From: Somniosus microcephalus
Lineage: Eukaryota
NCBI GenBank assembly: GCA_052327205.1
Contig: CM126206.1
Span: 284,580,001-284,644,000 of the forward strand
Direction: 5' to 3'
DNA: 64,000 bases
Shown here: piece by piece, positions 3,684-52,787 of the stretch
How the letters are laid out: every line of letters begins with the position of its first letter
Numbering within the stretch: position 1 is the first letter of the stretch
Translations under genes and position numbers: made by a program
The notes under the pieces: model-generated
Databases searched by the model: none
What the model was told of the DNA's origin: nothing
Seen by the model: the letters and a program-made list of their open reading frames with translations, nothing else

Positions 3684-3876
3684 TGTTGTGTCTGGGTATA
3701 ATAAGATACAGACTGCAGCAGAAACGGTACAACAGGTGTTTACTCAACGTGGCTCACAGTTGAACTGACTGTACAGATTACAACTCAGTGCTATATACAG
3801 GTGTGGTCACTGCCGGTACTACAGTATACATGAGCTGTAAAAAGTAGTTCCCCCCCTTAAAGGTACATACATTACA
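3684..3876 (-). repeat. 5' LTR of the left Gypsy element (193 bp)
   Basis: TG..CA termini, adjacent PBS, sequence related to the LTRs at 7458 and 12461. Confidence 0.85.
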
Positions 3877-5032: not shown

Positions 5033-5596
5033 CACTGAACAATCGGAGCTAGTTCAGGAACTGGTTGAGGACACAGAGGGCTCATATCAGCTGAGCAGCT
5101 GGGTTGGGGGGAGGGGTGCGGTGGGAAAGGCTGAAGACCTGATTTGAAATTTTCAGGACGGAGATCGATAGATTGTTGTTAGGTGAGGGTATCAAGGGAT
5201 ATGGAGCAAAGGCAGTTAAATGGAGTTGAAGTGCAGATCAGCCATCGAATGCAATGTGGTAAAGCCTCTGCTGGGCAGCAAACTTGATACCATTTTGATG
5301 AAGGTAAAGTAAGAATAAAAGTGTACTTTTTTTTCTCCAAATTTCAATGGAGGAGAAAGTATTTGACGGTGTTGTAAAAATAAAAATGGGTTTTCTCTGC
5401 TGCCTATTGAACAAGCTGGGCCCTGACTTCGTAAGGATTCCTTTTTTTTCTAGCTTCTCCTGCTCACGTTTACCTCAGAGTAAATCAGATGCGATTATTT
5501 GGCTGACTGATCACTGAAGACAGAATTTCCGTTTGTTAATAAGGACAGGCAAAACCAAATTCACCACTCAGTTTTGGCGAAAGCTCCATACACATA

Positions 5597-7457: not shown

Positions 7458-10400
7458 TGTAGTGTATGTAACCTGAAGAAGGAACTATATTCTGCAGCCC
7501 CTGTATACTGCAGTACCAGTAGTGACCACCCCTGTATATAAGCCTGTGTAGTAACCTTGCATAGTAGTTCCAGTTTTGTCTCTGTTCAGTAAACACCTGT
7601 TATCACCAACTCCTGCAGTCCGTGTCTCAATTACACACGGACGTTACACTGGCGACAAACAGATCTGAACTTACCTACAGTTCTGCACCACCTCACGGGG
7701 ATCCATCCCTGAAGCGAAGTTATTGGAGGTCGAGGCCAGAAGGAAGAAATCCAAAAAGAAAAAAAAACAAACAGCAGAAACGGGCGTCGACCGTGGGCAA
7801 CCGCCCTCTGATTCATCGAATTAGAAGATTTGCAGGAGAGGCTGTCGAGAGTGGGGCTTGGTTATCCAGTCTATGGTGTTCCAGCTAATCGGGCTGGTGG
7901 CAGGTAGTACACTGATCCTTCCTGGGCTGCGGCGGGCTAGAGCTCGATCGGGTGGCTTTTCAACGGGGCCGAGCAGCATTGTCGGGAAGAGGAGAGAGAG
8001 AGAGAGGGTGGAGCACACAGGACGCGGCCGGTGCTACGAAGCCGGGCAGCGTACAGACCCGAGAAGAGGGAGGGAAGTGTCCCATAGGGTCTGCTCTGAC
8101 GACGGGATCAGTAATTAAAATAAAAGAAATTACAAGCGCAGAAAGCCGCGAGCAGCTGCAGTTTGCCACGGGGACCGCGGAGAGCGGCGTTGGCAGCAGC
8201 GCGGGGGGAAGCGCGCGAAGACCATAGGGCGTCGCCATCAAGGCATAAAAACGTCAGCAACAGCACTAGCAGCAGCGGGAAGGCAGAAAGCGCGGGAGGC
8301 GCCATCTTAATCCAGCGGGGAAGAAGGCAAAGCGCAGGAGGCGCCATTTTGTTCAATCGGGGAAGAAGGCAAAGCGCGGGAGGCACCATCTTAGATCTCC
8401 AAGATGCCGAAGACTGGCAATATCACTGCCTTCGATAATGCAATAGAAGACTGGACCACGTATGTGGAAAGAGTCGAAGTATATTGCGAGGCAAATGAAG
8501 TAGCCGATGAGAAAAAGGCATTGGTACTACTAAACTTAATGGGCGCAAGAACGTACGGCCTATTGCGGAACCTGATCACTCCAGTCAAACCGATGGCGAA
8601 GAGTTTTAACGAAATTGTTGATACCCTACAGGAACACCTAAATCCTACACCGCTGCTGATAGCAGAAAGATTTAAATTCCACAAGAGAAATCAGCATAAA
8701 GATGAGAGCAATGCTGATTACCTTACGGAACTACGCGGGCTATCGAAGCACTGCCAGTTCGGAGCAGGACTGGCAGATACCCTACGGGACAAATTTGTCT
8801 GTGGACTCCTGAGTGAAGGAACCCAGAAGAGGTTACTCTCAGAGAAAGAGCTGATGCTAGATAAGGCTTTCAGCGTGGCAGTATCGTACGAAGCAGCAGC
8901 AAGGGGAGCTGCGGAAATACAGCAAAAGCCACAGGAATACGGCACCCATGAAATGACATGGGGATTTGAAAAACGTTATCGCTGTGGCAGAACAACCCAT
9001 GACCAGAAGGACTGCTGGTCCAAGGACAAAACATGCAGGCAATGCAGAAAGATGGGACACATTGCACGAGTTTGCAGGTCCGGGAAGAAGACTAACGACA
9101 ACAAAAAGGCTACTAAGGAACAGTACAGGAAAGTACAAAAGATGACGGACAGTAGTTCCGAAGACCAGAAGAGCGATAGTGAATCCGGGAACAAGAGATT
9201 AACCTGTCTCAAACTACACAACGTAATCGCAAAAGAGGATCACCGAACCATTTGGGTCACCCTCACGATAGCAGGGTCCCAAGTCAAAATGGAATTGGAT
9301 ACAGGATCAGCCCTGACCGTCATGAATCGACGAGACTACGAGCAGCTATTCTCACACATACCCTTGAAAGACACATCCATTGTCTTGAAGACGTATACGG
9401 GGCAGAAAGTATACCCCAGAGGGAAAATAAGGGTGCCTGTCGAATACAATGGCAAGGAAATACAGAAATTGTATCTGTACATACTGCAAGATGGTGGACC
9501 ACCGTTATTGGGATGTGAATGGATCAGAAAGATAAGTTTAGACTGGCACTCCATTCAGGCACTGACTGTGGCTGGTAAAAAGGATGACGACGTCACACCT
9601 GGACGATTGTCAAAAATCTTAGCTAACGCTAAAGAGGTATTTCAACAAGGACTGGGAACTCTTAAAGGCGTAACCGCCTCGATAAAAATAGAAGAGAATG
9701 CAATTCCCAAGTTTGTCAAAGCAAGACTGGTACCGTATGCAATTCGCCCAGCCGCCGAGGCAGAGCTGGAGAATCTGGAGAATGCAGGCATGTTATCTAA
9801 GGTAGACTGGAGCGAGTCGGCGACACCCATCGTTCCTGTCATGAAGAAAACGTTAAACAATAAGTCTGAGGAGCCAAGGAAGGTTCGCATCTGTGGGGAC
9901 TTCAAGGTGACTGTGAACCCAGTCCTTCACACAGTACAGTATCCTCTTCCGAGGATAGAAGATATTTTCGCCTCACTATCTGGAGGGAAGCGTTTTACAA
10001 AAATTGACCTAGCACAAGCATATTTGCAGATGGAGGTTGAAGAATCCTCTAGGAAATATCTCACGATAAACACTCACAAAGGTCTTTATCATTATAATCG
10101 ACTGGTATTCGGAGTAGCATCAGCTCCGGCGATATGGCAAAGAGCGATGGAACAAGTCCTGCAAGGGATTCCGGGGACTCAGTGTTACTTGGACGACATC
10201 CTAGTGACAGGTGAAAATGACAGTGAACACCTTGCCAACCTAGAGCAGGTGCTCACTAGACTAAGAGAACATGGGCTACGAGCCAATCACCCCAAGTGCG
10301 AGTTTTTTAAGAAACAGATATCGTATTGTGGCCACGTGATTGATGAAGAGGGGTTACATAAGTCCCCTGACAAAATTGAAGTGGTAGTTAAGGCTCCAGC

Positions 10401-12651
10401 GCCTGAAAACGTGTTGCAACTGAGGTCATGCCTCGGATTGGTGAATTACTACCATAAGTTTTTGCCGAATTTGGCCACAATTCTGCACCCACTGAACGCC
10501 CTACTACAAACTGGAGTAGCATGGAAATGGAGCGATGAATGTAAGCGGGCCTTTCAGAAGTGTAAAGACCTGATCACTTCAAGAGAAGTATTGGCTCACT
10601 ACAACCCATCACTACCGATAAGACTGGCGTGTGATGCGTCTCCCTGCGGCATTGGAGCGGTACTGTCACATAAATTCCTTGATGGTTCAGAGAGGCCGAT
10701 AGCTTTTGCGTCACGCTCATTAACTTCAGCCGAGCGTAACTACGCCCAGATTGACAGAGAGGCCCTCAGCCTGGTGTGGGGGGTGAAGAAGTTCAATCAC
10801 TACCTGCACGGACAGAAATTTACTCTACTAACTGATCATCAACCTCTTGTCTCCATTTTCAACCTTCAGAAGGGCGTCCCGATAATGACAGCACAACGGC
10901 TATAGAGGTGGTCCCTTTTCCTAGGGGCACACCAATATGACATCGAGTACAAAGGAACTAAACAGCATGGGAATGCTGATGGATTGTCGCGCCTACCGTT
11001 GCCGATGGTGGAAGAAGCACCTGCAGTAGATCCTGTGGAGATATTCCACTCGACCATAATCGAATGTCTACCTGTGACGAATGCAAACATAGAAAAGGAA
11101 ACACGAAATGACCCGACACTCTCCAGGGTCTATGATTTAACGGTGAAGGGATGGCCAGCACATGGCGAACCACTGTTGCCAGCATTCTCGGCAAGAAGAG
11201 AACAGCTGTCAGTGTGCCGAGGAACCTTGATGTGTGGATCCAGAGTAGTAATTCCACCCAAATTGAAGGATAGAGTGCTCAATGAGCTTCATGAGGGTCA
11301 TCTGGGTGGGGTAAAAATGAAGAACTTAGCCAGAGCGTTTGTGTGGTGGCCGGGAATCGATAGAGAAATCGAAGAGATGACCAAGAGCTGTACAGGATGC
11401 CAGAAGGTCCAAAACGCCCCACCACAAGCCCCTCTACATCCATGGGAGTGGCCCTCATCTCCATGGCAAAGGGTGCACATTGATTTTGCTGGTCCATTTA
11501 TGGACTCGATGTTTTTAATTGCAGTGGATGCACATTCAAAGTGGCCAGAGGTAATAAAAATGTCCTCAACCACCACATAAAAAACTATCACAGTCTTACG
11601 AACCATATTCGCCAGAAATGGGCTGCCTGAACAGATTTGCTCCGACAATGGGCCACAGTTTGTGTCTGAAGAGTTCCGGAGGTTCTTAAAGAACAATGGT
11701 GTTAAGCATTACACATCCGCCCCATATCATCCAGCCACCAATGGATTGGCTGAGAGGTTCGTTCAAACATTCAAGAAGGCTATCAAGGCAATGTGTAATG
11801 AAGACATAGCCCTACAACACAAGGTGGATAACTTCTTGTTTGCCTACCGGAATGCGACACATGCGGTTACCAACCAAACTCCAGCCATGATGTTCTTCAA
11901 TCGAAGACTAAGATGCCGCTTGGATTTGGTTAAGCCAAACGTCAGAAGAGATGTGGAGAACAGGCAGTTTCAGAATATGAATGAAAGGCCAACCAGGAGT
12001 TTCAAGATAGGTCAACCAGTTTTGGCCCGGGACTACCGCACAGAGAAATGGCAGCCAGGAACGATCTGCACACGGCAAGGACCTCTAATGTATACCATGG
12101 ACGTTGGAGAGAGCATTGTAAGACGCCATGCTGACCAGATTCTAGAGTCACTGGAAAACATCAAATCTACACCGCGATCCTATACACCTGGTGATGAAAC
12201 CGAAGTACCAATTGCATCTACCTCAGAATCGGTGATATTGGAAGCAGACGAACCAAACAACGACGTTGATCCCGAATCAACTTTGCCAGAAGAACCTGAT
12301 ACCCCAAAGAGGCGTTATCCGGACAGAATCAGGAAGCCTCCTCAAAGACTGAATTTATAATTGATTACTTTCAGCTAATGTATATGGCAACTGTAATTGT
12401 AAATATGTTATTTAATTATTAACCGAATGTTATGTACTGTTTAGCTAAAAGGGGAGGAATTGTAGTGTATGTAACCTGAAGAAGGAACTATATTCTGCAG
12501 CCCCTGTATACTGCAGTACCAGTAGTGACCACCCCTGTATATAAGCCTGTGTAGTAACCTTGCATAGTAGTTCCAGTCTTTTCTCCGTTCAGTAAACACC
12601 TGTTATCACCAACTCCTGCAGTCCGTGTCTCAATTACACACGGACGTTACA
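7458..12651 (+). mobile_element. Full-length Ty3/Gypsy (Mag-like) LTR retrotransposon
   Basis: 191-bp LTRs at 7458-7648 and 12461-12651 (3 mismatches), TSD GTTTT on both sides, PBS TGGCGAC at 7650, PPT AAAAGGGGAGGAA at 12447-12459, single gag-pol frame. Confidence 0.98.
8404..12360 (+). pseudogene. Gag-PR-RT-RNaseH-IN polyprotein in one frame with two premature stops (10903-10905 TAG, 11578-11580 TAA)
   Basis: ORFs 8404-10905, 10984-11580 and 11662-12360 share a frame. Motifs: LDTGS, YLDD, CDAS (RNaseH), HEGH...CxxC, DFAGP, SDNG, NGLAER. Ends RKPPQRLNL. Confidence 0.95.
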
Positions 12652-18917: not shown

Positions 18918-20082
18918 AACATAGAAGATAGGAGCAGGAGTAGGCCATTCGGCCCCTCGAGCCTGCTCCGCCATTCAATGTGATCATGGCTGATCATCCA
19001 AATTCAGTACCCGGTCCCTGCTTTCTCCCCATATCCCTTGATCCCTTTAGCCTTAAATATATCCAACTCCTTCTTGAATATATTTAATGAATTGGCCTCT
19101 ACTGCCTTCTGTGGAAGAGAATTCCACAGGTTCACCACTCTCTGGGTGAAGAAATTCTTCCTCATCTCTGTCCTAAATGGCTTACCCCTTATCCTTAGAC
19201 TGTGACCCCTGGTTCTGGACTGTCCAACCATCGGGAACATCCTTCCTGCATCTAGTCTGTCTAGTCCTGTTAAAATTTTATAAGTTTCAATGAGATCCCC
19301 TCTCATTCTTCTAAACTCCAGCGAGTATAAGCCCAATCGACCCAATCTCTCCTCATACGTCATTCCTGCCATCCCAGGTATCAGCCTGGTGAATCTTCGC
19401 TGCGCTCCTTCCATGGCAAGAACATCCTTCCTCAGATAAGGCAACCAAAACTGCATACAATACTCAAGATGTGGTCTCACCAAGGCCCTGTACAACTGCA
19501 GCAAGACATCCTTGTTCCTGTACTCAAACCCTCTCGCTACGAAGGCCAACATACCATTTGCCTTCTTAACCGCCTGCTGCACCTGCATGCTTACCTTCAG
19601 CGACTGGTGCACAAGGACGCCCAGGTCTCGTTGCACTTCCCCTTCTCCCAATCTATTGCCATTCAGATAATAGTCTGCCTTCTTGTTTTTGACACCAAAG
19701 TGGATAACCTCGCATTTATCCACGTTATATTGCATCTGCCATGCTTCTGCCCAATTACCCAACCTATCCAAATCATACTGGAGTTTCTCGGCATCTTCCT
19801 CACAGCACACACGCCCACCCAGCTTTGTGTCATCTGCAAACTTGGAGATATTACATCTAGTTCCCTCGTCCAGATCATTAATATATATTGTGAATAGCTG
19901 GGGTCCAAGGACCGATCCCTGCGGTACCCCACTAGTCACTGCCTGCCACTCGAAAAAAGAGCCCTTTATTCCAACTCTTTGCTTTCTGTCTGCCAACCAG
20001 TTCTCTATCCAAGTCAATACCTTGCCCCCAATCCCATGTGCCTTAACTTTACACGCTAATCTCTTATGTGGGACCTTATCGG
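18918..20082 (-). mobile_element. CR1 LINE, 5'-truncated (RT C-terminal half and 3' UTR)
   Basis: ORF 19004-20017: GVPQGSVLGP, FADDTK, RPHLEYC. Confidence 0.95.
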
Positions 20083-20142
20083 AAACAATTTTTTTTTAAT
20101 GCCTTATGTGCCTGCCACACACCCCTCTCTTATATGTAATAG

Positions 20143-23414: not shown

Positions 23415-26283
23415 GGGCTGGATTTTGATACTGGGGCGGGCTGGGGTCGTGTAATCCGCATTTCGTGTTAGCCACCCGATTCTAAATTGATGTGGGAGAT
23501 TGATGCGATTTTAACTTAATTGGCCAATTGAGTTCCAACGTGTGGGAACCCATGGCAAATGAGTTTTTCCAGTCTGAAAGTCGCCTCCGATGACGTCATC
23601 ATTGCTGCTGCATTTAAGGTCTGCAACAAGCCTTGCTTCTTCTGCAAACTGCCAACCTTTTGGCCTTTCATGTTAGAGGGACCTGGAGGCAGAATGACCA
23701 GCGAGAGACCTAGGTCTGCTCCCAGATTTGATGATGCTGCCCTGCAAGCTTTAGTAGAGGGAGCAAGAGTACATAAAGAGGTGCTCTTCCCTTCTTCAGG
23801 GAGGAAGAAGCCTCCCCAGCAGACCAAGGCTGTGTGGATCCAGGTGGCAGAGGAGGTCAACTCATTATCAGTAACCCGCAGAACCTGGATTCAGTGCAGG
23901 AAGAGATTTCATGACTTTCTGCGCACTGGAAAAGTGAGTATGAATTTCCCATCACCCACAATCTGATCTCCATGGCCTCTCCTCACCAGCACTCAGCTTT
24001 AGCAATCTCTTCCTCCACATCCCACTTGACATTGACACCCATGCGCCCTTACCCATTCCCTCTCTCTCTGTGGTCACATTCACCTAACTATTTGACTATG
24101 CAGCCCTCACACTCCCTATCACTGTGATGCTATGAAAACAACTGACAACACACAGGGAGGGCCCTTGGTCTTGCCACTTCACTCCATCTTTGTCTCCTTC
24201 TAAGCATCTATGCTATGGATTCTCTACACTCACTCCTTCATTCTCACTCAAACTCCACTTGTCTCCCTCATTGCAGGAAAAGAGAGCTCATAATAAGAGA
24301 GAAAGAGTGAGGACAGGAGGAGGGCCACCCTCAGTAGCCCACCTCACCCCCTGGGAGGATGCAGTCCTGGAGATCGTGGGAGTGGAGGACGATGCGCAAG
24401 TGGGGGACCGGCAGACGGGTGCATCACAGCAAGCTGGTGACAGAATTGTTTTCCATCTTTCTCAATGACATTGTATGAGTCGTTGATAATGATTCTGAAG
24501 CTCTAACAGATGGACTTATGATCATCTGCAATATGCAATGTGCATGTAACCTTGGCATCACATCTCTGACTCTTTCCTTTACTCCCCCACAGGACCATCG
24601 CAAGCACCCGTCCCCACTAGCCAGGAGGAACAGCATGAGCCTCAAGGCTCCTCAGAGGAAGCTGCAACCTCTGAGGGCGCAGCGTCAGCAGAATTCAGCA
24701 CACCCAGCACCAGCGCAGACACTCACACCTCGGTGGGACCATCGCAAGATAGAGTAGAGTTGTCACCTGGTGTATCACAGCTCACAAGTGAGAATCAGCA
24801 GATTGTGGAGACAGGGACAGCAGTGGAGAGTGCTAGTCGGAGGGCGCAGGACTCTGCCAGCTCGGCTCAGCTGCATGTCGACCCTCTGCCTCTGGGTCCA
24901 TCCATAAGATCAGCGGTGCTGGAACTCCAGGAACAGATGCAGGAGTCTCTTGCAGGTTTTGTTTCCAGGGTCGCTGTAAGTGTGGAGTGAATGGAGGAGT
25001 CCATTGTGAACATGAGCAGAGCCTTTGAGGAGTCATTGGCGCATGAACGCATCACCATGGAAAGGATGGCAACCTCCATGGAGGTGATAAGTCGCCAGAG
25101 TGCTGAAAACAAGGTGAGTGTTCTGAATAGAATGACATCTCTGGAGGAGCGATGGTCTTCTATTGAACAGAGAAACCAGACCTTCATGGAAGTCCTTCTG
25201 AGTAGGACTGCCAGTGCAGATACGGGTCCCCATGGCCCCCCAGATGTGCAGCAAGGTGCTCTCATGCCACTTGCAAATGCTGAGGGGGACCTGACCCATG
25301 AGAGGGAAGTTGGTGGCAGACATCAAGGAAGTGGGGGCTCCTCTCCAAGCGCTCACACGACCATGCCACTGCAAAGCCCTCGGTGAGAGCCCCACCAGAG
25401 TCCACACCCATCTGAGATTGGCGTCTCAACCCCTGCACAGCCGCAGGAGCAGCAGACTGTTGACGAGCCCTCACAGGTTCGCAACCCCAGAGGAAGCCCG
25501 CCAAAGGTGTCGAGACAGGAGCAGCGGGAAAGTGAGCAAGGGGCCTCCACATCAGCTGAAGCCACAGGGGAAGCACCACGTAGGAGCACGCATAAGAGAA
25601 AGATACTGCACAAATAGTCACAAGGGCAGTCACTTGGGTGAAATTTGATGTTTTATGTTATAAAGCCATCAGATGATTACTGTAAATAAAAAATCTGATG
25701 GCTACTGCTGTAGTTGTGGCGTGTGTCATTTCGCTAATGGGACTTCCACATTGAGGGCTTAGGATTACTTGGTATATGCCTCAGTTGAGGAAGCGCTCAG
25801 TAAAGGTAGCGAGAGGGGTTTCCCAGGAGGTCACACTGGAGATGGGTGTCAGGCTCCAACCTTCCACAGCTGTGGTTATGCCTTCTAAAAGTTCCCCCAG
25901 ACCTGAGACAACAAAGTCCTGCCACCTGCAAATAATGGCTGATCAAATATCCTATTTAATGGTGGAGCTGCAGCTAATAGTCAGCAATCCAATTGTGCTC
26001 CCGTCAGGTTTCACCGTTGTGTTTCAGAGCAGGCGTGCTTCATGTCGGAAAAGGGTTAAAATCACCAAGGCCTATCAAAATGGCATTATAGAGGCAATTT
26101 AGTGCTTGTTAAGTGCCTTAACGGCCTATCCCACCTCTTGGAGGCGGGACGGAGATGGGACCAGTAGACACGATTTAATGAAAATTGCTTGGAGGCGGGG
26201 TTGGGCCCGCCCGCCAGTTTTTGCAATTTTATACCCCTACACGCCTCCAATCCCGCCTCAATGGCCCGATGACAATCAAGCAC
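23415..26283 (+). mobile_element. PIF/Harbinger derivative carrying only the Myb/SANT-like gene
   Basis: Left end GGGCTGGATTTT. The right subterminal region 26090-26283 matches the reverse complement of the left end of the Harbinger MITE at 47569. Right TIR is degraded. Confidence 0.75.
23694..25617 (+). pseudogene. Three-exon Myb/SANT-like DNA-binding protein gene (exons 23694-23933, 24277-24436, 24593-25617) with two TGA stops
   Basis: APRFDDAALQALVE...W..VAEEVN...RTWIQCRKRFHD...RTGGGPP is the trihelix/MSANTD signature. GT-AG introns in phase. In-frame TGA at 24988 and 25384. AATAAA at 25685. Confidence 0.85.
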
Positions 26284-28202
26284 GGTGTAGCAGAGAGACA
26301 TAGCTCTTACAAGCTGGAGGCAAGGCACACAATTCTTACTGCACGAGCCAAGATGGAGGATGAACCTCTGAGTCATACCCATAATGCAATGCCACACTAC
26401 CGTATAAACTGGTGTACCAGGACATTGAATACATGACCCATTACCTTAAATACTGGTGAATGTGAACCCTTAATATTTGGCTCCATCTGGTGGATAACTT
26501 AAACATTACATCCCAGATTACTATATCCCTCCCCTCTTAAGTTGAACATTAATTTCTTAACAACATTCTTAAAAAGTCCCATAAGGAAACTCCTTTAACG
26601 ATCGTCCATACTGAACGAATCTAGCAGGTCGTTATCAATTTCTCTGGTGGCTCGTGAGACCTTGGTGAATGTCTTACAGTCAAGTCCCTGCTTGGTTGTG
26701 GTAGAGCCACCTGCTGCTCCTGAGCAGTACTCAGAGTATCTGATTCTGCTACGATGGTTTCCTCTTGACGAAGGGGTCCAGGTGGAACTGGCTCTGTTCG
26801 TGGTGGTGGTACCACCGATGCATTTGGATAACTGGGGGCCAACTTGTCCTCCAACATCTCCTCTGGAACCTCCATTTCGATTTCCCCTTGTCTGGTCAGT
26901 TTCTGATCTACATGTCTGCGTACTACCTGACCAGTTCCCACCATGACCGTATATGATACTGGACTGGTCATTGAGTCTATGACGCCAGGAATCCATTTTG
27001 GACCATAACTGAAATTCCTGGTAAGGACCGCATCTCCTTCTCCAAAACTGCAGCTCTTTGTCCTTCTGTCATGGTTCTCCTTTTGTTTGATTTGTCGATG
27101 TTCCACCTTCCTTTTTAGGTCTGGGTGAACCAGGTCAAGAGTGGAGCGTAGTCGACGTCCTAACAACAGCTCAGCAGGAGAGAGTCCTGTGGTGGATTGA
27201 GGTGTTATTCTGTAGCTGAACAGAACTCGTGACACCTTGGCCAAACTCCCTTCTGCACTTTTTTTCATCATCTCCTTAAATGTTTGTACGGCTCTCTCTG
27301 CAAGGCCATTTGAAGATGGATGATATGGAGCTGAGGTCACGTGCACTATGCCATTGTTTCTCATGAACTCTTTTGTTTCTGTACTCACAAAACACGTGGC
27401 ATTGTCACTTACTACGATCTCCGGTAGCCCTTGATTACTAAAACTCCGATGCAGGCAGTCTATAGTAACAGTAAATAAAGCAGAATTTACAGGATAAACA
27501 TCCATCCATTTGGAATGGGCATCAATGATTATGAGGAACATCTTTCCCATGAATGGACCCGCATAATCTACATGTAATCTTCTCCATGGTTTATCCGGCC
27601 ACTCCCAGGGGTGGAGAGGAGCCGCTGCTGGTGCCTTCCTGTGTACTTGACAAGTGCTGCATGTCTTGACTAGATTTTCTATCTCCTCATCTAGTTTTGG
27701 CCACCACAAGTAACTCCTTGCCAAGGCTTTCATACGTGAAACTCCAGGATGACACTGATGTAGTTGCCCTAGGATAGACTGTCGTGCTGGCTGTGGAATA
27801 ATCACTCGTGCTCCCCACAACACGCAACCATCCTGCACACCCAGCTCTGTCTTCCTGACACTGTAAGGTGTGAAATCAGTCCCTTCCGGATGCTGTGGCC
27901 AACCCCTCATCACATATTCTCAGACTCTAGACAGTACTAGATCTTTACCGGTCCATGTCCTTACTTGTTCTGCGGTCACAATTGCCGTGTCCGTGTCCTC
28001 CAACATCAAAACTCTGTCCTCTGGAGCTGCATGGATAGGTGTACCTGGCAGTGGAAGACGGCTCAAGGCATCTGCGTTCCCATGGTACTTGCCCACCTTG
28101 TAAATGATGACATACTCATATGCCCTCAACGACACTGCCCACCTCTGGATCTGCGGTGACACCATCTGTGGTACTGCTTTCATTTCATTAAAAAGAGATA
28201 GA

Positions 28203-31200
28203 TGTTAAGTACGTGTATTGTATTGAACAATTAACACAAAGACTTAAACGTATAACTCAAACAGGTCTTTACTGGTTGGAGGTAGGGACTGCACGTAGGT
28301 CTTTACTTCATGCCCACAGGCGGGAACTGAGGGGAGATCAGTACCCACAATACTATTTATACCCCTATGGCCAGGAGTGGTACTGCGTATCACTACGCCC
28401 TACAAGTAGTGCAGTCCCGTCCATAGGTTCAAAGTAGCACACATATTACATACACAACATTCCTCCCTTCTTAGCTTTACAGTCATCTCCCCATTTAACA
28501 TAACGTAATAACATATATACATATATAACTTCAGGTTTACATAACAGAATAACATAGATACATAGATAACTTCATGTCAAAACAGATCACAGATTCAGTC
28601 TCTGCAGAAAACAGTTCACAGATTCAATCTCTGTGGTGTAGTCGGTTCACGTTGCTGGAGTGACTCATTCAATAGTCCTTCCATGGATTTAACAGTTTGA
28701 ACTTCCGAAATGAATTGGCTCTGTTCGGAGGGACCACGTGTGTGATCTGGTAGAGGTAATAATGGTTCAGATGGGTCATCTTCTGTTTCGACTTTTCCTT
28801 TTCTGCTTCTTGGAGACTCTCTGGGCTCCACTGTCAGCTGCCAGCTGCATGCGCAGTTCCTCCTTCTCTTCCTCCTTTTTCCGTAGTAGAGCCACCTTCT
28901 CCCGATGTTCCGTAGACTTTCGGTGCTCCTCCATGATTTCTGTATGGTGGGAGTCGAAGTTACAAGTTGGGCAGGGCAGGACATAGTAATATTCGGTGTC
29001 GTCCTGATCTAGGCCAGCGAGAGGGTCTTCTATTTCCTCCATACCCAGCTGGGCGTTAGCCAGCTTTTGTTCCAAGTCCAGACATCTTTCCTGAAGAGAC
29101 TTCTTCATGCGTACCTCTTCATCCAGCTTTTTCTGGGCTTTCAGCAAGTCGTTTACTAATGACCTCATTTGAGATTTTACTACTTCAACTTCTTTTGGAG
29201 ATTGATTGATCGGACTATTCAATCCCTCTACCGGAGCAGCTGTTTCAGCGGTCTGTTGTTCTACGTTGACGTGAGTCAGCGTACTTTTGGCATCCAAGGG
29301 CTGCTCTGTTGCAGTCATCTCAGTCTGTGTTGCCACCTCAGCTCTTCCAATAACCTTTGAGAGCTCCGAACCCCTTTCGTTTGAATATTGAAGTTCGTGT
29401 TCAAGTTTTTCCCATTTCAGAGTCCTGTCCTTCAGCATATGCAGGAGTTGGCTGACCGTTAACTCCTCTGACATCAGACGTTTTGTGTGCTCCTGCTCCA
29501 TTTGCTCCAGCAGCTGCTTCTGTTGTCTTTCCAGATGTTCTCACTCTATATCAAAGAACTCTTTCGTCGCATTCATCTCTTGCTCAAAACGGCGAATCAT
29601 TTGTTCTAATTGCTGTTGCAGTTTGAAATGGAGTTGAGTTCGAGCCCGGTGTCCCTCAGAAATGTGCATGTCAGTAGACTGGACAGACTCAGAATTCTCT
29701 ATCTCAGTGGAATTCTGTGCTGAAACTTTGTCTTTTGCACACGGGTTGGTCTTACCATCATCAGTTCCAGAGTCTGGGTTGATTATGTTCACCGAGTTCT
29801 CACTCGTTATTGTTTGTAGGAAATGCCAGTCCATATTCATTTTCCTAATCCACTCCCGTCCTAGTAGTGGAGGACCTCCTTCAGATATCACATATAAGTC
29901 CATTATTTGACTGTCTTCGCCCTTGTGGACCACTGCAACCTCTATTTTCCTGATGGGGTACACTCTTTGCCCCGTGTATGTTTTCAATATAATCCCCGTA
30001 TCCTGTAGGGGAATATGTTGGAATAACTTTCCGTAATCTTTCTTATTTATGACCGTCAATGCCGATCCAGTGTCCAATTCCAGTTTTACTTGGACTCCTT
30101 CTATCTGAAGAGTGACCCAAATTGTCTGGAGGTCTGCACCCTTACCAGCGTTGAGTACTCTTAAGCTAGCCAGTTCATTACAGCTTAAGCTAGCCAGTTC
30201 ATTACTGCTAGCGTCTGAATCGGACTCCTGTTCGGTCACCTTGTGTACCTTTGCGTATTTTCCTTGCGGTGACTTCTTGTTGCTGGTCTTCTTCCCTGAC
30301 CTGCATACTCTAGCTATATGTCCAAGCCTACCACAAGTTCTACATTCTTGGTTTTTAAACCAACACTGGTTCTGATCATGCGTTGTCTTTCCACAACGAT
30401 AACATTTGCCAGAACTCACACCCAATTTGTGTGCACTGAGCTCCGGTGACCGTAGCTGCATTACTGCCGTGCCTCTCGCTGCGGCTTCGTGTGCTGCTGC
30501 CATAGTGACCGCCTTCTCAAGCGTCAGCTCATTCTCCTCGAGGAGTCGCTTTTGTGTATCCTGTTTAAATAAACCACACACAAATTTGTCTCGTAGTGCA
30601 TCTGTCAGTCCCGTTCCAAACTGGCAATATTTCGCTAATTTACGCAATTCCAGCAAATATTCAGCATTGCTTTCATGCTGTAGCTGCCTTCTGTCATAAA
30701 ATTTAAATCGTTCCGCTAGCATCAGCGGCGTGGGGTTTAGATGATCTTTCAGGACAGTAACAATCTCATCGAACGTCTTATCCGTCGGTTCATCTGGTGA
30801 TAACAGGTGTTTCAATTGCCCGTATGTCTTCGCACCCATTAAATTTAATAATGTTAGAGCTTTATCTTGGTCACGAATTTTATTGGCCTTACAATAATTT
30901 TTTACTCTTTCAACATATATGGCCCAATCTTCGAGGTCACTATCAAAGGTGCTAATATTCCCGTGTTTAGGCATCTTCTTCTCTTCTCGAGAACAACACA
31001 AGTATTGCTTCACTTATTTCTTGTTTCTGAAAATTCTTATTAATTTTCTAAGATGGCAGTTTCCCACTTCTGCCTTCTTCCCCAGCGGTTTTCCCGCGAA
31101 AAATGGCGGCTTTCCCGCGCTTCTCGCTCTCCCCGCCCACTTCAATGGCGGTTTTCCCGCGCTTCTCGTCGCTGACTTTCAGCCCGACTGCGGCCCTTAT

Positions 31201-31905
31201 CTCCTGTGCGATCGCTGGTGCGCCGCCCGCCCGAAGCGGTTCTCAGCCCTTATCACCGGTGCGATCGCTGGCCCGCTAAGCGCCTCCCGCTTGAAGCGGC
31301 TCCCGGCCTCTGGCTCACCCGCTCGCGCGGCTCTTGCTCGCTCCCTCCCGGGCTCTGGCTTACCCGCTCGCGCATTTCACCGCGGCTCTTATCAGGGATT
31401 GCGATCGCCCTTATCTCCCGATCGGTGACCCTGTCTTTGCAGCCAACGCTGCTCGGCTTACCCACGAGGTTATGGAGGCTTCAGGGTCCTAATGCCTGTC
31501 GCTTCCAGTCGCTGGAAGCTGTCAGGATTTCTGCTGCCCTTCAGTTTTCAGTGGGGTGTTGAGGATTGAAACCTCTCTTCAACGTCCTGTCTTTGGACGA
31601 AGCCGCCGTGGAATAACTGCCGCAGGGTTCGAACCGACTCGTCGCCAATGTTAAGTATGTGTATTGTATTGAACAATTAACACAAAGACTTAAACGTATA
31701 ACTCAAACAGGTCTTTACTGGTTGGAGGTAGGGACTGCACGTAGGTCTTTACTTCATGCCCACAGGCGGGAACTGAGGGGAGATCAGTACCCACAGTACT
31801 ATTTATACCCCTATGGCCAGGAGTGGTACTGCGTATCACTACGCCCTACAAGTAGTGCAGTCCTGTCCATAGGTTCAAAGTAGCACACATATTACATACA
31901 CAACA
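28203..31905 (-). mobile_element. Nested non-autonomous Gypsy-derived LTR element: gag-protease fused to captured host-gene fragments, no RT/RH/IN
   Basis: 257-bp LTRs at 28203-28459 and 31649-31905 (3 mismatches), TSD ATAGA (28198-28202, 31906-31910), PBS TGGCGACGAG, PPT AAGAAGGGAGGAA; interrupts the host RNaseH. Confidence 0.97.
28776..30974 (-). CDS. Chimeric ORF gag-PR-(STK10/SLK coil)-(OPTN coil)-(DNAJC21 zinc finger), with one in-frame TGA at 29541-29543
   Basis: MPKHGNISTFD gag, two CCHC knuckles, LDTGS. ORFs 29541-31013 and 28776-29501 are in the same frame. Downstream segments resemble host proteins (see findings). Confidence 0.8.
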
Positions 31906-34900
31906 ATAGAAGAGGTTTATGATCAGTGCATATGGTGAATTTCCTGCCATATATGTACTTGTGAAACCTCTGTAACCCAAACATTACTGCTAACCCCTCT
32001 TTATCTAACTGGGAATAGTTTTTTTCCGCTGGTGTCAGAGTTCGAGACATAAACCCTATTGGTCTTTCTGTTCCATCTTCCAAGCTGTGTGAAAGAACCG
32101 CCCCCACCCCGTAAGGTGAAGCATCACAAGAGAGAATGATGTCTTTCTCTGCATTGTAGTGAACCAGCACATCCGAGGACAGCATCAGTTTCTTGGACTG
32201 TTCAAATGAAACCCTCTGTTCCTCTTCCCACTGTCACTGTGTCTCCTTACGCAGAAGTTTGTGAAGAAGTGCTAACACTGTTGCCAAGTTTGGTAAAAAT
32301 CTGTTATAATAGTTTAGCAGTCCCAGGTAAGCTTTTAACTCAGTCACATTGGTAGGAGCTGGGGCCTCCTGCAGTGCTTGTACCTTCTCCTTGATTGGAT
32401 GGAGCCCGGTGGCATCCACTCTGTGTCCCAGGAACATGGCCTCATTCCCCAGGAAAGTGCACTTACTCCTCTTGAGCCGTAACCCAGCCTTATCCAATCT
32501 TTGTAGTACCTCTCTCAGAGTGCTCAGATGCTCCTGGCCGGTTCTTTCTGTCACCAGAATGTCATCCAGATAGATTGAAACATGTGGGATCCCTTGCAGT
32601 ACACCCTCGATAGTCCTCTGGAAAATAGCTGGACTAGATGAGACACCGAATGGTAAGCGGTTATAGGTAAACAAACCCTTGTGTGTATTTATGGTTACAT
32701 ACTTCTTGGATTCCTCATCTAGTGTAATCTGCAAGTATGCATGACTCATATCCAGCTTCGTGAATTTCTTCCCTCCAGCCAGGTTCGCAAAGAGATCCTC
32801 TGTTTTGGGAATAGGATACTGTTCTAGTTTAGACACCCTATTTACTGTCAATTCATAATCTCCACAGAGTCTTACCGAATTGTCCGGTTTTAAAACAGGT
32901 ACAATGGGAGCTGCCCATTCTGAACATTTCACGGGTTCCAGTATGTTCTCGCTCAAAAGACGGTCAAGCTCAGCCTCTACCTTCGGTTTCATGGCATACG
33001 GCACAGGTTGTTGTTTAAAAAACCTTGGCAGTGCCTCCTTGTCTACATAAATCTTAGCTGGGGGGCCATTAAATGTGCCAAGTTCTTCCTTGAACACGTT
33101 CTCATGTTCAATCAACACTTCTTGCAAAGACAACTGTTTGCCTCCCTCTATTTGATTTATTGCTCCCCAATCTAATTTAAGTTCTTGTATCCAGCCCCGA
33201 CCTAACAGGTTTGGTCTGGAACCCGATACTACAACTACAGGTAGCTGTTCCACGGTGTCCCTGTGTTGCACAGTTACAGTAGCTGTACCCAATGTCACCA
33301 CTCGTTCACCGGTATATGTTTTAAGCTGCATAGAACAAGACTTTAACTCTGGAACTTTTGCACGGTTCCACAATTTTGAGTACTCCTCCCTGTTCATTAT
33401 GGTCACACCGCATCCTGTATCCACTTCAAAGTTGACCTTAGAGTCATTTACTGTCAGTTGCAAAGTGATAGGATCCACTTTTGGAATGTTCTCTACCATA
33501 CTATGCATTATGCACATGTCGTCTTCTTTCTCAGCTTCTCCGCTGATGTAATGTGCTCCCTGTTTTTTCACTTCTCTTCCTAGGTTTTGCTTTTCTCCCC
33601 CTTTTGGTTTGTATTCCTCCATGGTTGCTTTTGCCCTGCATGCACATTTTATATGTCCTTTTTTCCCACACTTGTGGCACTTTTCCTCCAGAAACCTGCA
33701 TTCCCTCGCCAGGTGATCACCATTGCATCTATAACACACCTTCACATGCTCATGTTGTGGTTTCTGATGCATGTTTAACATGTGCACAATAACCTGACCT
33801 GCAACTTGCTTTGTAGTAGCCCAGTCTGAACCTTATATTTCTTTTACATCTTGGTTCGCTGTCTCTATGGCTTGAGCAAGTTCCAACGCTTTTTCATATG
33901 TAAGCCCAGTCTCGGACAATAATCTCCGCTGCATTCGATCATCCATTATCCCGCAAACTAGCCTATCTCGCAGCATGTCTTTCAGGTTGTTGCCGTAATT
34001 GCAATCGTGTGCCAATTTCCTCAACACCGCTACATAATCCAATGCAGTCTCTCCCGGTTTCCTGTTCCCTGAATTAAATTTGAAACGCTGTACAATCTCA
34101 CTCAGTCTGGGATTGAAATGGTCCTTCAGCAAGGCCAGTAAGTTAGCAAATGATCTGTCTCCAGGCTTTTCAGGACTGCATAAGTTTCTCATCAAACTAT
34201 ACGTCTGACTTCCCACGGAAGTGAGCAAAATCGCTCTCCTTTTTCCGACGTCATTTATATCATTTGCTTCAAAGAAATGCATCAACACCTCGCAGTATTC
34301 ATCCCAGGTCTGCGTCTGAACATCAAAAGCAGAGATCTTTCCTACCGTAGCAGCCATGATCCGTTATTCAGTGCTCCTTTTCTTTTTTTTTCTTCGTCAA
34401 GATGTGATCTGTTGGTCCTCGTCGCCAATATGTGATATCCGAGTGGTAAGGTCAGAAACTGAGATAAGCGAGATATTAGGAACAAAACCCAACTGTTTAT
34501 TTACACGGTGAAGCAGAGAGACATAGCTCTTACAAGCTGGAGGCAAGCACACAATTCTTACTGCACGAGCCAAGATGGAGGATGAACCTCTGCGTCATAC
34601 CCATAATGCAATGCCACATTACCGTATAAACTGGTGTACCAGGACATTGAATACATGACCCATTACCTTAAATACTGGTGAATGTGAACCCTTAATATTT
34701 GGCTCCATCTGGTGGATAACTTAAACATTACATCCCAGATTACTATACAAAATTAATCCAATTGAGTAGCAAAGTGTCTGTTTGCTTTCCAATTGGTTTG
34801 GGAAGGCAGTGCACCCGGAAGATGGAGCAATGGCGGGAGGGTGGGGGCGGAATGGTTCAAGGTGGAAGGTCATGTGATGAAACCTTCAGGAATACGCTCA

Positions 34901-40000: not shown

Positions 40001-40097
40001 GGCTGGCAGGGGCCGTGCCGTGCGCTGGCCTGGTTTGAATGTGAATTCCGTTTCATTCCTTTATTGGTTCCCCCTCTCGCGCTGCAGCTCCTGACAG
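40000..40097 (+). other. EXOC3: Probable non-coding exon 1 of EXOC3 (5' end approximate)
   Basis: Lies in the CpG island, ends at a strong donor GTAAGA; the ATG is in a downstream exon. Confidence 0.65.
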
Positions 40098-40169
40098 GTA
40101 AGAGGCCGTGTGAGGCGGCGGCCGGACCGAGCCGAGCCTGGGGCCTGTGGTGCGGCTCGGAGAGTCATT

Positions 40170-40815
40170 GTCATCACAGCCCCAGGGTCGGGCAGGCGGT
40201 GTCATCACAGCCCCAGGGTCGGGCAGGCGGTGTCATCACAGCCCCAGGGTCGGGCAGGCGGTGTCACTCCAGCCCCAGGGTTGGGCAGGCGGTGTCGCCC
40301 CAGCCCCAGGGTCGGGCAGGCGGTGTCACCACAGCCCCAGGGTCGGGCAGGCGGTGTCACCACAGCCCCAGGGTCGGGCAGGCGGTGCCACCCCAGCCCC
40401 AGGGTCGGGCAGGCGGTGCCACCCCAGCCCCAGGGTCGGGCAGGCGGTGCCACCCCAGCCCCAGGGTCGGGCAGGCGGTGCCACCCCAGCCCCAGGGTCG
40501 GGCAGGCGGTGCCACCCCAGCCCCAGGGTCGGGCAGGCGGTGCCACCCCAGCCCCAGGGTCGGGCAGGCGGTGCCACCCCAGCCCCAGGGTCGGGCAGGC
40601 GGTGCCACCCCAGCCCCAGGGTCGGGCAGGCGGTGCCACCCCAGCCCCAGGGTCGGGCAGGCGGTGCCACCCCAGCCCCAGGGTCGGGCAGGCGGTGCCA
40701 CCCCAGCCCCAGGGTCGGGCAGGCGGTGCCACCCCAGCCCCAGGGTCGGGCAGGCGGTGCCACCCCAGCCCCAGGGTCGGGCAGGCGGTGCCACCCCAGC
40801 CCCAGGGTCGGGCAG
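40170..40815. repeat. GC-rich 31-bp minisatellite, ~21 copies
   Basis: Unit GCCACCCCAGCCCCAGGGTCGGGCAGGCGGT. Confidence 0.98.
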
Positions 40816-41154
40816 TTCCACTGCTCCAGGACTTGGTATTTTTGCAGTCTCATAGCCTTGCAATCTGTTCTATTCCCCAAATCCAGCAATGTATATCATT
40901 GCAGTCTCAGGGCCTGGCACTGGGGATCATTACATTTCCAAGACCCGGCACTGGGTCCCATCAGTTCTAGTGTCGGGCACTCTGTGTCGTTGCTGCCCAA
41001 CATTATCGTGTTATTACTCACCCATGTGTTGTTAGTTGTTACTGTGCCAGGGTTAGTGGAGTGCGTTGTTAGTGTCCAACAATCCAGTGTCGTGTCAGAA
41101 TCTGAGTCCAGCACTGCCTATCCCTTTGGTCCCAGTGTGTTATGGCTAATGTAC

Positions 41155-41833
41155 CATAGAAACATAGAAGATAGGAGCAGGAGTAGGCCATTCGGCCCCT
41201 TGAGCCTGCTCCGCCATTCAATGAGATCATGGCTGATCATCCAAATTCAGTACCCTGTCCCTGCTTTCTCCCCATATCCCTTGATCCCTTTAGCCTTAAG
41301 AAATATATCCAACTCCTTCTTGAATATATTTAATGAATTGGCCTCAACGGCCTTCTGTGATAGAGAATTCCACAGGTTCACCTGGGTGAAGAAATTCCTC
41401 CTCATCTCAGTCCTAAATGGATTACCCCTTATCCTTAGACTGTGATCCCTGGTTCTGGACTTCCCCGCCATCGGGAACATCCTTCCTGCACCTAGTCTGT
41501 CCAGTCCTGTTAGAATTTTATAAGTTTCAATGAGATCCCCTCTCATTTTTCTAAACTCCAGCGAGTATAAGCCCAATCGACCCAATCTCTCCTCATACGT
41601 CATTCCTGCCATCCCAGGTATCAGCCTGGTGAATCTTCGCTGAACTCTCTCCATGGCAAGAACATCCTTCCTCAGATAAGGCGACCAAAACTGCACACAA
41701 TACTCAAGATGTGGTCTCACCAAGGCCCTGTACAACTGCAGCAAGACATCCTTGTTCCTGTACTCGAACCCTCTCGCTACGAAGGCCAACATACCATTTA
41801 CCACCTTAACCGCCTGCTGCACCTGCATGCTTA
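41155..41833 (-). mobile_element. CR1 LINE 3' fragment
   Basis: ORF 41247-41828, near-identical to the 18918 and 58098 copies; (catagaaa) tail. Confidence 0.95.
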
Positions 41834-42009
41834 GTGTACTGTATTCTAGTGTTGCAGTACCACGAGAAATACTGTACTATTAGAATGGAGATGGAATTCT
41901 GGGACGATACATTGGGAGCTTTTATGCGGCATGAACAGGTGGACAGTGCCTTGGTTTAATGTCTCAGCAGAAAGACGGCACCTCCCGACAAGTCACTCCT
42001 TCAGTACTC

Positions 42010-50064: not shown

Positions 50065-52787
50065 CCGACCAGGGGGCAAGCAACCTTTAGATTTGGTCCT
50101 GTGTAATGAGACAGGATTAATTAAAAATGTCCTAGTAAAGGATCCCCTTGGAATGAGTGACCATAACATGGTTGAGTTCTATATTCAATTAGAGGGTGAG
50201 AAGGTTGGATCTCAAACAAGCGTGCTGAGCTTGAATAAAGGAGACTATGAAGGTATGAGAGCGGAATTGATTAGAGTGGACTGGGAAAATAGATTAAAGG
50301 GTAAGACGGTACATGATCAGTGGTGTACATTTAAGGAGTTATTTTACAACTTCCAAAAAAAATATATTCCACTGAGGAATAAAGGGTGTAAAAGAAAAGA
50401 TAGCCATCCGTGGCTAAGTAAAGTAATTAAGGATAGTATCCGACTAAAAACAAGGGCATATAAGGTAGCCAAATCTAGTGGGAGGATGGAAGATTGGGAA
50501 GTCTTTAAAAGACAGCAAAAAATAACTAAAAGATTGATTAAGAAAGGGAAGATAGATTATGAAAGTAAATTATCAAAAAGTATAAAAACAGACAGTAAAA
50601 GTTTCTATAGTTATATAAAAAGAAAAAGGGTGGCTAAAGTAAATGTTGGTCCCTTAGAGGATGAGACCGGGAAATTAATTGTGGGAAACATGGAGATGGC
50701 AAAAACACTGAACAATTATTTTGTATCAGTCTTTACAGTAGAGGACACTAAGAATATCCCAACACTGGACAAACAGGGGGCTCTAGGGGGGGAGGAACTA
50801 AATACGATTAAAATCACTAAGGAAGTGGTACTTGGTAAAATAATGGGACTCAAGGCGGATAAATCCCCTGGACCTGATGGCTTGCATCCTAGGGTCTTGA
50901 GGGAAGTAGCGGTAGGGATTGTGGATGCATTGGTAATAATTTTCCAAAACTCACTGGACTCAGCAAAGGTCCTGGCAGATTGGAAAACTGCTAATGTAAC
51001 ACCCTTATTTAAAAAGGGTAGTAGGCAGAAGGCTGGAAACTATAGACCTGTTAGCCTAACATCTGTGGTTGGTAAAATGTTAGAGTCCATTATTAAGGAG
51101 ACAGTAACGGGACATTTGGATAAACATAATTTAATAGGACAAACTCAGCATGGTTTCATGAAGGGGAAGTCATGTTTGACAAATTTGCTGGAGTTTTTTG
51201 AGGAAGTAACATACAGGGTGGATAAAGGGGAACCAGTGGACGTAGTGTATTTAGACTTCCAAAAGGCATTTGACAAGGTGCCACACAAAAGATTATTGCT
51301 CAAGATAAAAAATCACGGGATTGGGGGTAATATTCTGGCGTGGGTGGAGGATTGGCTTTCTAACAGAAAGCAGAGAGTTGGGATAAATGGTTCGTTCTCA
51401 GATTGGCAACCAGTAACTAGTGGTGTTCCGCAGGGGTCAGTGCTGGGTCCCCAACTCTTTACAATCTATATTAACGATTTGGAGGAGGGGATCGAGTGTA
51501 ACATATCAAAGTTTGCAGATGATACAAAGATGGGACGGAAAGTAGTGAGTGAGGAGGACATAAAAAACCTGCAAAGGGACATAGAAAGGCTAAGTAAGTG
51601 GGCAGAGATTTGGCAGATGGAATACAATACTGGAAAGTGTGAGGTTATGCACTTTGGCAGGAAAAATCATAGAGCAAGTTATATCTTAATGGCAAGAAAC
51701 TGGAAAGTACTGTAGTACAAAGGGATCTGGGGGTCCTGGTGCACGAAACTCAAAAAGTTAGTATGCAGGTGCAGCAAGTGATCAAGAAGGCCAGTGGAAT
51801 GTTGCCTTTTATTGCTAGGGGGATGGAATATAAAAACAGGGAGGTATTGCTGCAGTTGTACAAGGTATTGGTGAGACCGCACCTGGAATACTGCGTACAG
51901 TTTTGGTGTCCATACTTAAGAAAAGACATACTTGCTCTCGAGTCAGTACAAAGAAGGTTCACTCGGTTAATCCCGGGGATGAGGGGGTGGTCATATGAGG
52001 AGAGGTTGAGTAGATTGTACTCTACTCATTGGAGTTCAGAAGAATGAGAGGCGATCTTATTGAAACATAGAAGATTGTGAAGGGGCTTGATCGGGTGGAT
52101 GCGGTGAGGATGTTCCCAATGATGGATGAAACTAGAACTAGGGGGCATAATCTTAAAATAAGGGGCTGTTCTTTCAAAACTGAGATGAGGAGAAACTTCT
52201 TCACTCAGAGGGTGGTAGGTTTGTGGAATTTGTTGCCCCAGAAAGCTGTGGAAGCTACAGCATTAAATAAATTTAAAACAGAAATAGATAGTTTCCTAGA
52301 AGTAAAGGGAATTAAGGGTTACGGGGAGCGGGCAGGAAATTGGACATGAGTCTAGGTTCGGAATGGTCATGGCTCTGTGGGTAGTGGAGTGGGCCCAGGG
52401 GCCGTGTAGCCTGGTTCCGCTCCTACTGTGTTCTAATTCTGCGTTAGATTTCAGGAGATGGTTTTATCCCTGTTCCTGGCTGGGGTGGAGATCGCCTTTA
52501 CAGAAGGTAAGTACTGTAGAAAATATAGGGACAGAGTGATCTCCTGGAAGAATTTCGATCGCCTAGATGGGTCGGAGAGGAATTTCCCAGATTTTTTTCT
52601 CCCAAATTGGCCATTGGGTCTTTATCTGGTTTTTCGCCTCTCCCGGGAGATCACATGGGTTCGGGTGGATGCAGAGTGATAGAAGATTTGAGGTTAGGAT
52701 CAGATCAGCCATGATCTTATTGAATGGTGGAGCAGGCTCGAGGGGCCGATTGGCCTACTCCTGCTCCTATTTCTTATGTTCTTATGA
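50065..52787 (+). mobile_element. CR1 LINE (EN C-terminus, RT, long 3' UTR) inserted into an older minus-strand CR1 3' end (49912-50062 and 52788-53150)
   Basis: ORF 50093-51715 with SDH, KSPGPDG, NYRPVSL, FADDTK; ends in the ttcttatgttcttatg tail. Confidence 0.95.

Follow-up and report, generated by a model that had tools for sequence, protein, structure and literature searches.

In-frame host-gene mosaic behind gag and protease in a multicopy non-autonomous Ty3/gypsy family of a shark genome, with a remodeled C2H2 finger derived from that of DNAJC21

The window, by which we mean the whole 64,000-nucleotide stretch of DNA that was analyzed, contains a 3,703-bp non-autonomous Ty3/gypsy element (28203–31905, minus strand) inserted in the RNase H region of a broken outer gypsy element (Table 1). 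The two LTRs of the nested element (257 nt each, with TG...CA ends) are 99% alike, and between them lies one ORF only, which starts with the ATG at 30974, passes through gag with its two zinc knuckles and the protease into about 340 residues that are neither RT, RNase H nor integrase, and ends at 28776. The window copy has a stop in this frame at 29541–29543, a region through which many other copies are open. The genome searched for copies comprises 6.4 Gb and its genes are closest to those of sharks. Two other gypsy elements in the window (1–3753 on the minus strand and 8395–12360 on the plus strand, with inverted matches to each other of 76–84%) have 56–61% identity to the gag-protease of the nested element, versus 33% for the outer element, and this relatedness makes them candidates for its helper lineage. 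One neighboring gypsy relative has an integrase end after pol. The ORFs of sister elements end in a stretch that is like the integrase C-terminus of the 8395–12360 element (gag-protease 56–60% identical), which implies that the host-derived mosaic described below replaced most of pol.

Table 1. Coordinates of the nested element, its parts and its immediate setting in the window.
Feature	Position	Strand	Basis
5-bp target-site duplication, left copy	28198..28202		5 bases recur at 31906-31910
5-bp target-site duplication, right copy	31906..31910		same 5 bases as left
3' LTR, 257 nt, TG...CA	28203..28459	-	99% to 31649-31905
5' LTR	31649..31905	-	repeat comparison within window
Polypurine tract	28460..28475	-	read from sequence
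Primer-binding site	31631..31648	-	read from sequence; first 10 nt common to PBS of outer element
gag with two zinc knuckles	30300..30974	-	weak Pfam hits; 56-61% gag-protease identity to neighboring gypsy elements
Aspartyl protease	29823..30125	-	Pfam RVP/gag-asp_proteas: below cut-off here, over cut-off in sister L053
STK10 linker pieces and start of PKK coiled coil, three host exons	29476..29805	-	PF12474 over cut-off in open copy L032
In-frame stop of window copy	29541..29543	-	truncates ORF ahead of optineurin and finger parts
Optineurin coiled-coil piece, four host exons without introns	29032..29483	-	70% protein identity to P0002 226-384; 81-92% DNA identity to host exons on C17
Short STK10 piece preceding finger	29025..29042	-	18/18 nt identical to host exon
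Captured DNAJC21 segment: acidic lead-in, C2H2 finger, helix, basic tail	28785..29024	-	sits inside STK10 exon piece
Remodeled C2H2 finger, C-x2-C-x12-H-x5-H	28905..28973	-	translation, copy comparison, predicted structure
Basic C-terminal tail and stop codon	28776..28820	-	aligns to DNAJC21 P0125 residues 440-445 and sister copies
STK10 pieces resuming beyond finger	28664..28784	-	85% DNA identity to host STK10 exon; out of frame here, in frame in many sisters
Remnant of parental integrase C-terminus, past stop	28616..28660	-	like integrase end of gypsy element at 11581-12360 and C-terminus of sister ORFs
Outer broken Ty3/gypsy element (gag, protease, RT, RNase H, integrase)	26281..34747	-	Pfam RVT_1, RT_RNaseH, rve; terminal repeats 26281-26525 / 34504-34747

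The residues behind the protease are a mosaic in which an STK10 linker and PKK coil are followed by optineurin residues ~226–384, a few STK10 codons, a DNAJC21 piece and then STK10 again. The host STK10 and optineurin genes were located, and the pieces in the element join their exons without introns: the optineurin piece corresponds to four host exons in the window element and to six in the sister L053, and the STK10 pieces span exon junctions. Both donors could be shown side by side for six junctions, and all six have microhomologies of 4–9 nt; the two DNAJC21 junctions are without donor DNA. The frame of the donors is kept at six of the seven junctions of the window element, and the seventh terminates the ORF right after the basic tail. 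Because the DNAJC21 piece splits a single STK10 exon piece and is missing from seven aligned finger-less sisters, the absence from which sets its bounds (28785–29024), we conclude that it was captured later. DNA identity to the host is 96–99% for most exons in the sisters versus 77–95% in the window type. Nearly all of the captured pieces that we saw are coiled coils or the finger, and the tails have been swapped, shortened and reshuffled freely among subfamilies. The frame in many sisters runs on to a basic end that derives from integrase. In the window type, L094, L167 and L179 it stops instead, through indels that differ among them, on the basic stretch of DNAJC21 itself, which hints that a basic terminus is favored. 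The optineurin piece also contains a VATQTE stretch (29279–29299, minus strand), which we take to resemble a dynein light-chain binding motif; the host exon of the assembly differs at that place.

Minus-strand translation of the ORF at 28776–29540, which closes with ...DDTEYYYVLPCPTCNFDSHHTEIMEEHRKSTEHREKVALLRKKEEEKEELRMQLAADSGAQRVSKKQKRKSRNRR-stop, bears out the first-pass annotation of this DNA in its description of four intact zinc ligands spaced C-x2-C-x12-H-x5-H and a basic tail. The ligand codons are Cys 28971–28973, Cys 28962–28964, His 28923–28925 and His 28905–28907 (codon 668 onward from the ATG at 30974). The span that it had given to the segment, 28779–29009, covers the finger and the tail, with the captured piece being slightly wider at the 5' end. 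The basic tail is in the native frame of DNAJC21, from which it derives, and it may give the window element an NLS-like end. According to the available portion of PMC6710477, DNAJC21 is a J protein of 60S maturation with two C2H2 fingers. The window finger is like the first of these (PF12171) in its ligands, spacing, following helix and basic stretch, and descends from it; it differs in that its surface is rewritten, acidic and below the Pfam cut-off, and in that the element has no J or zuotin domain.

The similarity to DNAJC21 that the first-pass annotation had proposed holds by way of sister elements and of a pairwise comparison, whereas direct library searches with the window finger failed. 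In a single BLASTP comparison, the window segment and great white shark DNAJC21 (P0125) had 22 of 51 identities (E 1e-9). Across the finger, the window DNA has a gap-free alignment with sister elements in which the corresponding segment matches DNAJC21 at E 3e-18; for one of these (L074), the segment had 326 matches, and the 120 listed carry DNAJC21 names or the DNAJC21 domain set, the best being that of the great white shark (E 3e-18). The DNAJC21 finger is nearly native in sister subfamilies, which are connected to the window type by intermediates. When the genome was searched with PF12171 (150 scored matches), 29 of the 30 loci examined were sister elements with the near-native finger and one was an ordinary host exon. 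As for the failed searches, DNAJC21 was not recovered by a word-indexed library search with the window segment (0 of 105 candidates at E ≤ 1), none of three matches in a full HMMER search with the window finger was shown to be DNAJC21 (two were generic zf-met/JAZ proteins and one was without a Pfam match), a PDB sequence search with the finger gave one chance match only (E 7), and Pfam gave no zf-C2H2_jaz match in the segment at E ≤ 1. We regard the derivation of the finger segment from the host DNAJC21 gene as settled. Exons 1–4 of that gene were located at C1:2.65–2.68 Mb, ending 6 kb before a run of 500 Ns (G000:C1:2646797-2647296). The later exons, including that of the finger, were found neither in the next 80 kb, where there are two 500-N runs, nor genome-wide with residues 148–284, a result that does not show them to be absent; the donor DNA is consequently represented here by the sister copies. 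A search with PF21884 led to exons at C17:58.36 Mb, which we take to be those of DNAJC2 and did not consider further.

The window-type finger is present in large numbers. A 31-nt pattern for it (≤1 mismatch) had 3,446 genome matches and a donor-like pattern (≤2 mismatches) had 251, with 0 for the control in either case, these numbers being matches to single patterns and not full copy counts. A predicted intermediate pattern had 103 matches, and among 30 that were examined there were 21 true intermediates and nine window-type variants. Twenty copies were picked for long frames; exact 5-bp target-site duplications were present in 15 of the 18 with two LTRs, and 13 LTR pairs of equal length had six differing sites in total. 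In 30 copies taken in genome order, four had a premature stop within the stretch covered (~codons 178–732), and there were 84 private substitutions in 42,478 copy-sites, a divergence of 0.2%. The element is still spreading. All 30 of these copies keep the four ligands, so that the random loss by which the first-pass annotation had proposed to judge its case did not occur, although with only 84 private substitutions this retention reflects the youth of the copies and is uninformative on selection. Finger-less sisters are likewise young and widespread, and the finger is therefore dispensable; the greater abundance of the window subfamily might be due to its LTR or gag and not to the finger. None of the indexed data sets that contain the stretch was on record as RNA, a result to which we attach no weight. 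In two RNA runs from an organism that carries the element and may differ from that of the assembly, 11,419 records out of 16.7 million and 11,072 out of 14.4 million fell on the element, with all 30 bins covered, including the finger. By first-mate strand, the depth over the finger was 365 versus 16 in run X6 and 104 versus 66 in run X7 (short reads, with library strandedness not on record); the bias in X6 is in the direction expected of sense RNA in most stranded libraries, and that in X7 is small.

Comparisons between subfamilies (12 pairs) gave dN/dS values of 0.19–0.23 for gag and 0.26–0.35 for the protease, both of which are under purifying selection. For the optineurin and STK10 pieces against the host, in unpolarized comparisons that include change in the host lineage, dN/dS was 0.30–0.55 in three sisters (p 0.0005–0.05) and 0.58–0.79 in three window-type copies (p 0.05–0.28), the latter being indistinguishable from neutral. 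The finger itself can be followed in a series from the donor-like form of L079 through CPACNFNSQSAEIMEEHQKSTEH (L195, intermediate) to CPTCNFDSHHTEIMEEHRKSTEH (window). A 6-nt loss in the window finger is offset by a 6-nt duplication, with two codons after the second Cys gone and two others duplicated, so that the x12 spacing is kept and one Phe is, as we read the series, retained two places nearer to the Cys. Stable finger variants with an aromatic shifted in this way are known. A literature search on this variant had no match. Across lineages, changes affect 11 of 19 residues in the finger and 43 of 247 in the remainder of the tail (Fisher p 0.0002). With the four indel codons excluded, the 19 finger codons had 14 nonsynonymous and one synonymous substitution, versus 44 and 25 in the rest of the tail (p 0.03), the finger ratio alone being not significant (p 0.14–0.22). 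Neutral simulation with the mutation spectrum of the private changes gave probabilities of 0.054 for all four ligands being kept, 0.041 for at most one synonymous change and 0.0008 for both, in a test that was post hoc, the region having been singled out afterwards. Between the donor-like and the window type, the finger shifts in net charge from +4 to -3, and its zf-C2H2_jaz score drops from 40.1 bits (L079) to 17.3 (L195) to no match (window), relative to a cut-off of 22.6.

In a single copy, L219 (1155–1598, minus strand), the finger module is repeated in tandem as a 69-residue unit. Its second finger is 19 substitutions away, with all ligands kept, a more basic character and changed hydrophobic core residues.

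The early hint that the ligands are constrained at the protein level thus gained support, but only through the comparison between subfamilies, in which ligands and spacing were kept while 11 of 19 residues changed. A finger that was rapidly rewritten and yet kept its zinc ligands suggests that the captured protein parts have been selected for a new job. We favor, with a probability of roughly 0.6, a role of the tail as protein in which the finger has turned from RNA binding to protein binding. Of the other explanations, the one that survives best, although we consider it unlikely, is that the tail matters only as translatable sequence (with a stop near the 3' end and for RNA length), that its amino acids drift and that the divergence of the finger marks a hot spot of mutation or editing in which the ligands were lucky. 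A>G changes make up five of the 15 in the finger and could be from editing, but a hot spot should strike synonymous sites too and only one of the 15 is synonymous. Similarly, the simulated probability of ligand retention alone (0.054) is compatible with luck, whereas the balanced 6-nt indels inside the finger are not readily so, and the second finger of L219 repeats the pattern of kept ligands. The optineurin and STK10 pieces of the window type are not significantly below a dN/dS of 1 and the tails are freely reshuffled, as drift would have it, yet the corresponding values for the sisters against the host are low and the captured pieces are nearly all coiled coils or the finger.

AlphaFold, with an alignment input that included DNAJC21 rows, predicted a two-strand-plus-helix finger with a long helix (pLDDT 83–94). 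Foldseek with this model had no match at E 0.001, and the rows returned were C2H2 fingers. A ubiquitin-binding (NEMO-like) finger appeared only in Foldseek rows at E 2.5–4.7, and we treat it as a lead only. The neighbors of the finger in the ESM Atlas were zf-met/JAZ clusters at 0.94, with a recognition value of 2287, just under the 2300 mark. With respect to JAZ/U1 membership, the window finger has the ligands and the predicted fold, and it has neither a score over the Pfam cut-off of 22.6 bits nor a basic recognition helix. JAZ fingers bind RNA through a basic helix. It would seem improbable, then, that the finger, like its donor, still binds ribosomal RNA or that it helps to package or localize the RNA of the element: zf-C2H2_jaz matches the donor-like sisters at 40 bits, the ligands, predicted fold and Atlas neighbors of the window type point the same way and its basic tail could contribute affinity, but the net charge has been reversed and the JAZ match was lost stepwise. 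The first-pass view of the finger as a JAZ-type RNA binder was not borne out for the window type, for which RNA binding is doubtful and, given the loss of the basic face of the donor, most likely absent. Very improbable in our estimation is an RNA-level decoy, in which the host-derived sequence would protect the element from silencing or give rise to small RNAs that target the donor genes. In spite of a Drosophila precedent (see below), the 96–99% identity of sisters to most host exons and reads on both strands in one RNA run, in-frame fusion would be unnecessary for a decoy, similarity to the host is lowest (77–95%) in the most numerous subfamily, the finger changes are nonsynonymous and none of STK10, optineurin and DNAJC21 is known as a silencing gene.

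The structure of the tail shows that reverse transcription in an ancestor of the element jumped, at short microhomologies, to host mRNAs packaged along with it. In-frame pieces of spliced STK10 and optineurin mRNAs, and later one of DNAJC21, took the place of RT, RNase H and most of integrase in this way. The element, which retained its LTRs, PBS, PPT, gag and protease and is still spreading, presumably depends on an autonomous gypsy relative for RT and integrase and is probably translated as a single Gag-protease-tail polyprotein. Its tail would be a coiled-coil rod with a terminal zinc finger and a basic, NLS-like end, and would be under selection among elements. In the most numerous lineage, the finger would have kept its zinc-bound fold and lost the basic face of its donor, and most likely serves as a small protein-binding or targeting surface that aids the assembly or travel of the element's own particles, or evasion of a host factor. 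Only tentatively do we go as far as the combined proposition that host mRNAs have time and again supplied coiled-coil and zinc-finger modules (those of STK10, optineurin and DNAJC21, besides at least four further inserts) to the interchangeable Gag-protease tail of a selfish non-autonomous LTR family of vertebrates, and that positive selection at the level of the element turned an RNA-binding finger of ribosome biogenesis into a protein-binding domain for conflict with host or helper, with intermediates still in the genome.

Transducing retroviruses are defective elements with gag-onc fusions that need a helper. The shark element is like them in that gag is fused to captured cellular coding sequence, and unlike them in that it is a germline retrotransposon without env, carrying a multi-gene coiled-coil mosaic and no catalytic host domain. 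LTR-mediated retroposition in animals, as presented in the accessible text of Tan et al. (2016, PMC5131818), places partial spliced mRNAs between LTRs with microsimilarity at the junctions, with several parental genes per chimera, in sense and often in frame, and with secondary retroposition. The shark element shares the intron-less host exons (of optineurin and STK10), the junction microsimilarity and the multi-gene chimera. The cases in that text are at single or few loci, two or three of them with protein constraint, and its supplements may hold cases of higher copy number, whereas the shark pieces lie behind a conserved gag-protease, in thousands of copies, reshuffled among subfamilies and with one domain remodeled. 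Maize Bs1, too, is a non-autonomous LTR element, and it unites pieces from three host genes in one transcribed chimeric ORF; it differs in being a plant element of one to five copies with one piece out of frame, and graded remodeling of a domain is not described for it in the portions available of PMC5131818 and PMC13317346. Drosophila telomeric elements with nxf2, piwi or aub fragments are likewise selfish, with captured host fragments and higher copy number, and the available part of PMC13534243 reports a fitness gain from gene capture via piRNAs, which is the precedent for a decoy referred to above. These are non-LTR elements with fragments of 140–235 bp that act via piRNAs, whereas the shark evidence points to protein.

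The mechanism, LTR capture of several mRNAs, is thus known; what would be new is an in-frame Gag-protease fusion at thousands of copies with a remodeled domain. As far as the consulted portions of PMC5131818, PMC13317346 and PMC13534243 go, this scale is far beyond the cases that they describe. Our literature search, with repeat databases and most subscription journals outside its scope, found no report of the shark family or of such a fusion, and the family may already be catalogued as a repeat. It is a vertebrate case in which the transposon, and not the host, appears to employ captured host protein domains. Since donor-like, intermediate and derived fingers coexist in one genome, the stepwise change of the surface is directly testable, and so is the question, left open by the Drosophila and plant work, of whether captured coding fragments raise the fitness of an element as protein. 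On the practical side, searches of the genome for optineurin, STK10 and JAZ fingers are swamped by the element copies, which can also interfere with annotation and the mapping of RNA-seq reads.

Several minor observations concern the sister subfamilies. The finger-less sisters L053–L068 are ~4.2–4.6 kb long and have a longer optineurin piece, which includes a DSFVEI stretch, the LC3-binding motif, that was lost from the window subfamily. In L074 (1765–2430, minus strand), another coiled coil replaces optineurin within the STK10 exon piece (Pfam Myosin_tail_1, 59.7 bits), and we assume it to be cingulin-like. L066 (2228–2698) has an extra insert of 157 residues after the protease with no Pfam or PDB match and no usable Atlas name, one part of which may resemble the region of the taspase site in KMT2A and another a degenerate zinc finger. 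Two further captured coiled-coil stretches, in L137 (478–1071) and L218 (1959–2843, minus strand), are presumably RAI14/UACA-like and EVI5-like, respectively, the L218 insert having received no name from Pfam, PDB or Atlas. Copies of the L137 type pair a different gag with a window-type finger, which indicates that tails recombine between subfamilies. The window-type copies L031–L050 have near-identical ORFs and at least two LTR types (~99% and ~92% to those of the window), with a third type in L045. Elsewhere in the window, a 31-bp minisatellite and an irregular repeat of 11-bp units (40030–40918 and 3859–5100) give rise to spurious long frames, and dispersed repeats at 19004–20095, 41139–41876, 51133–52290, 58104–59326 and 61814–63171 are related to one another (70–95% alike) and are probably LINE 3' ends and SINEs.
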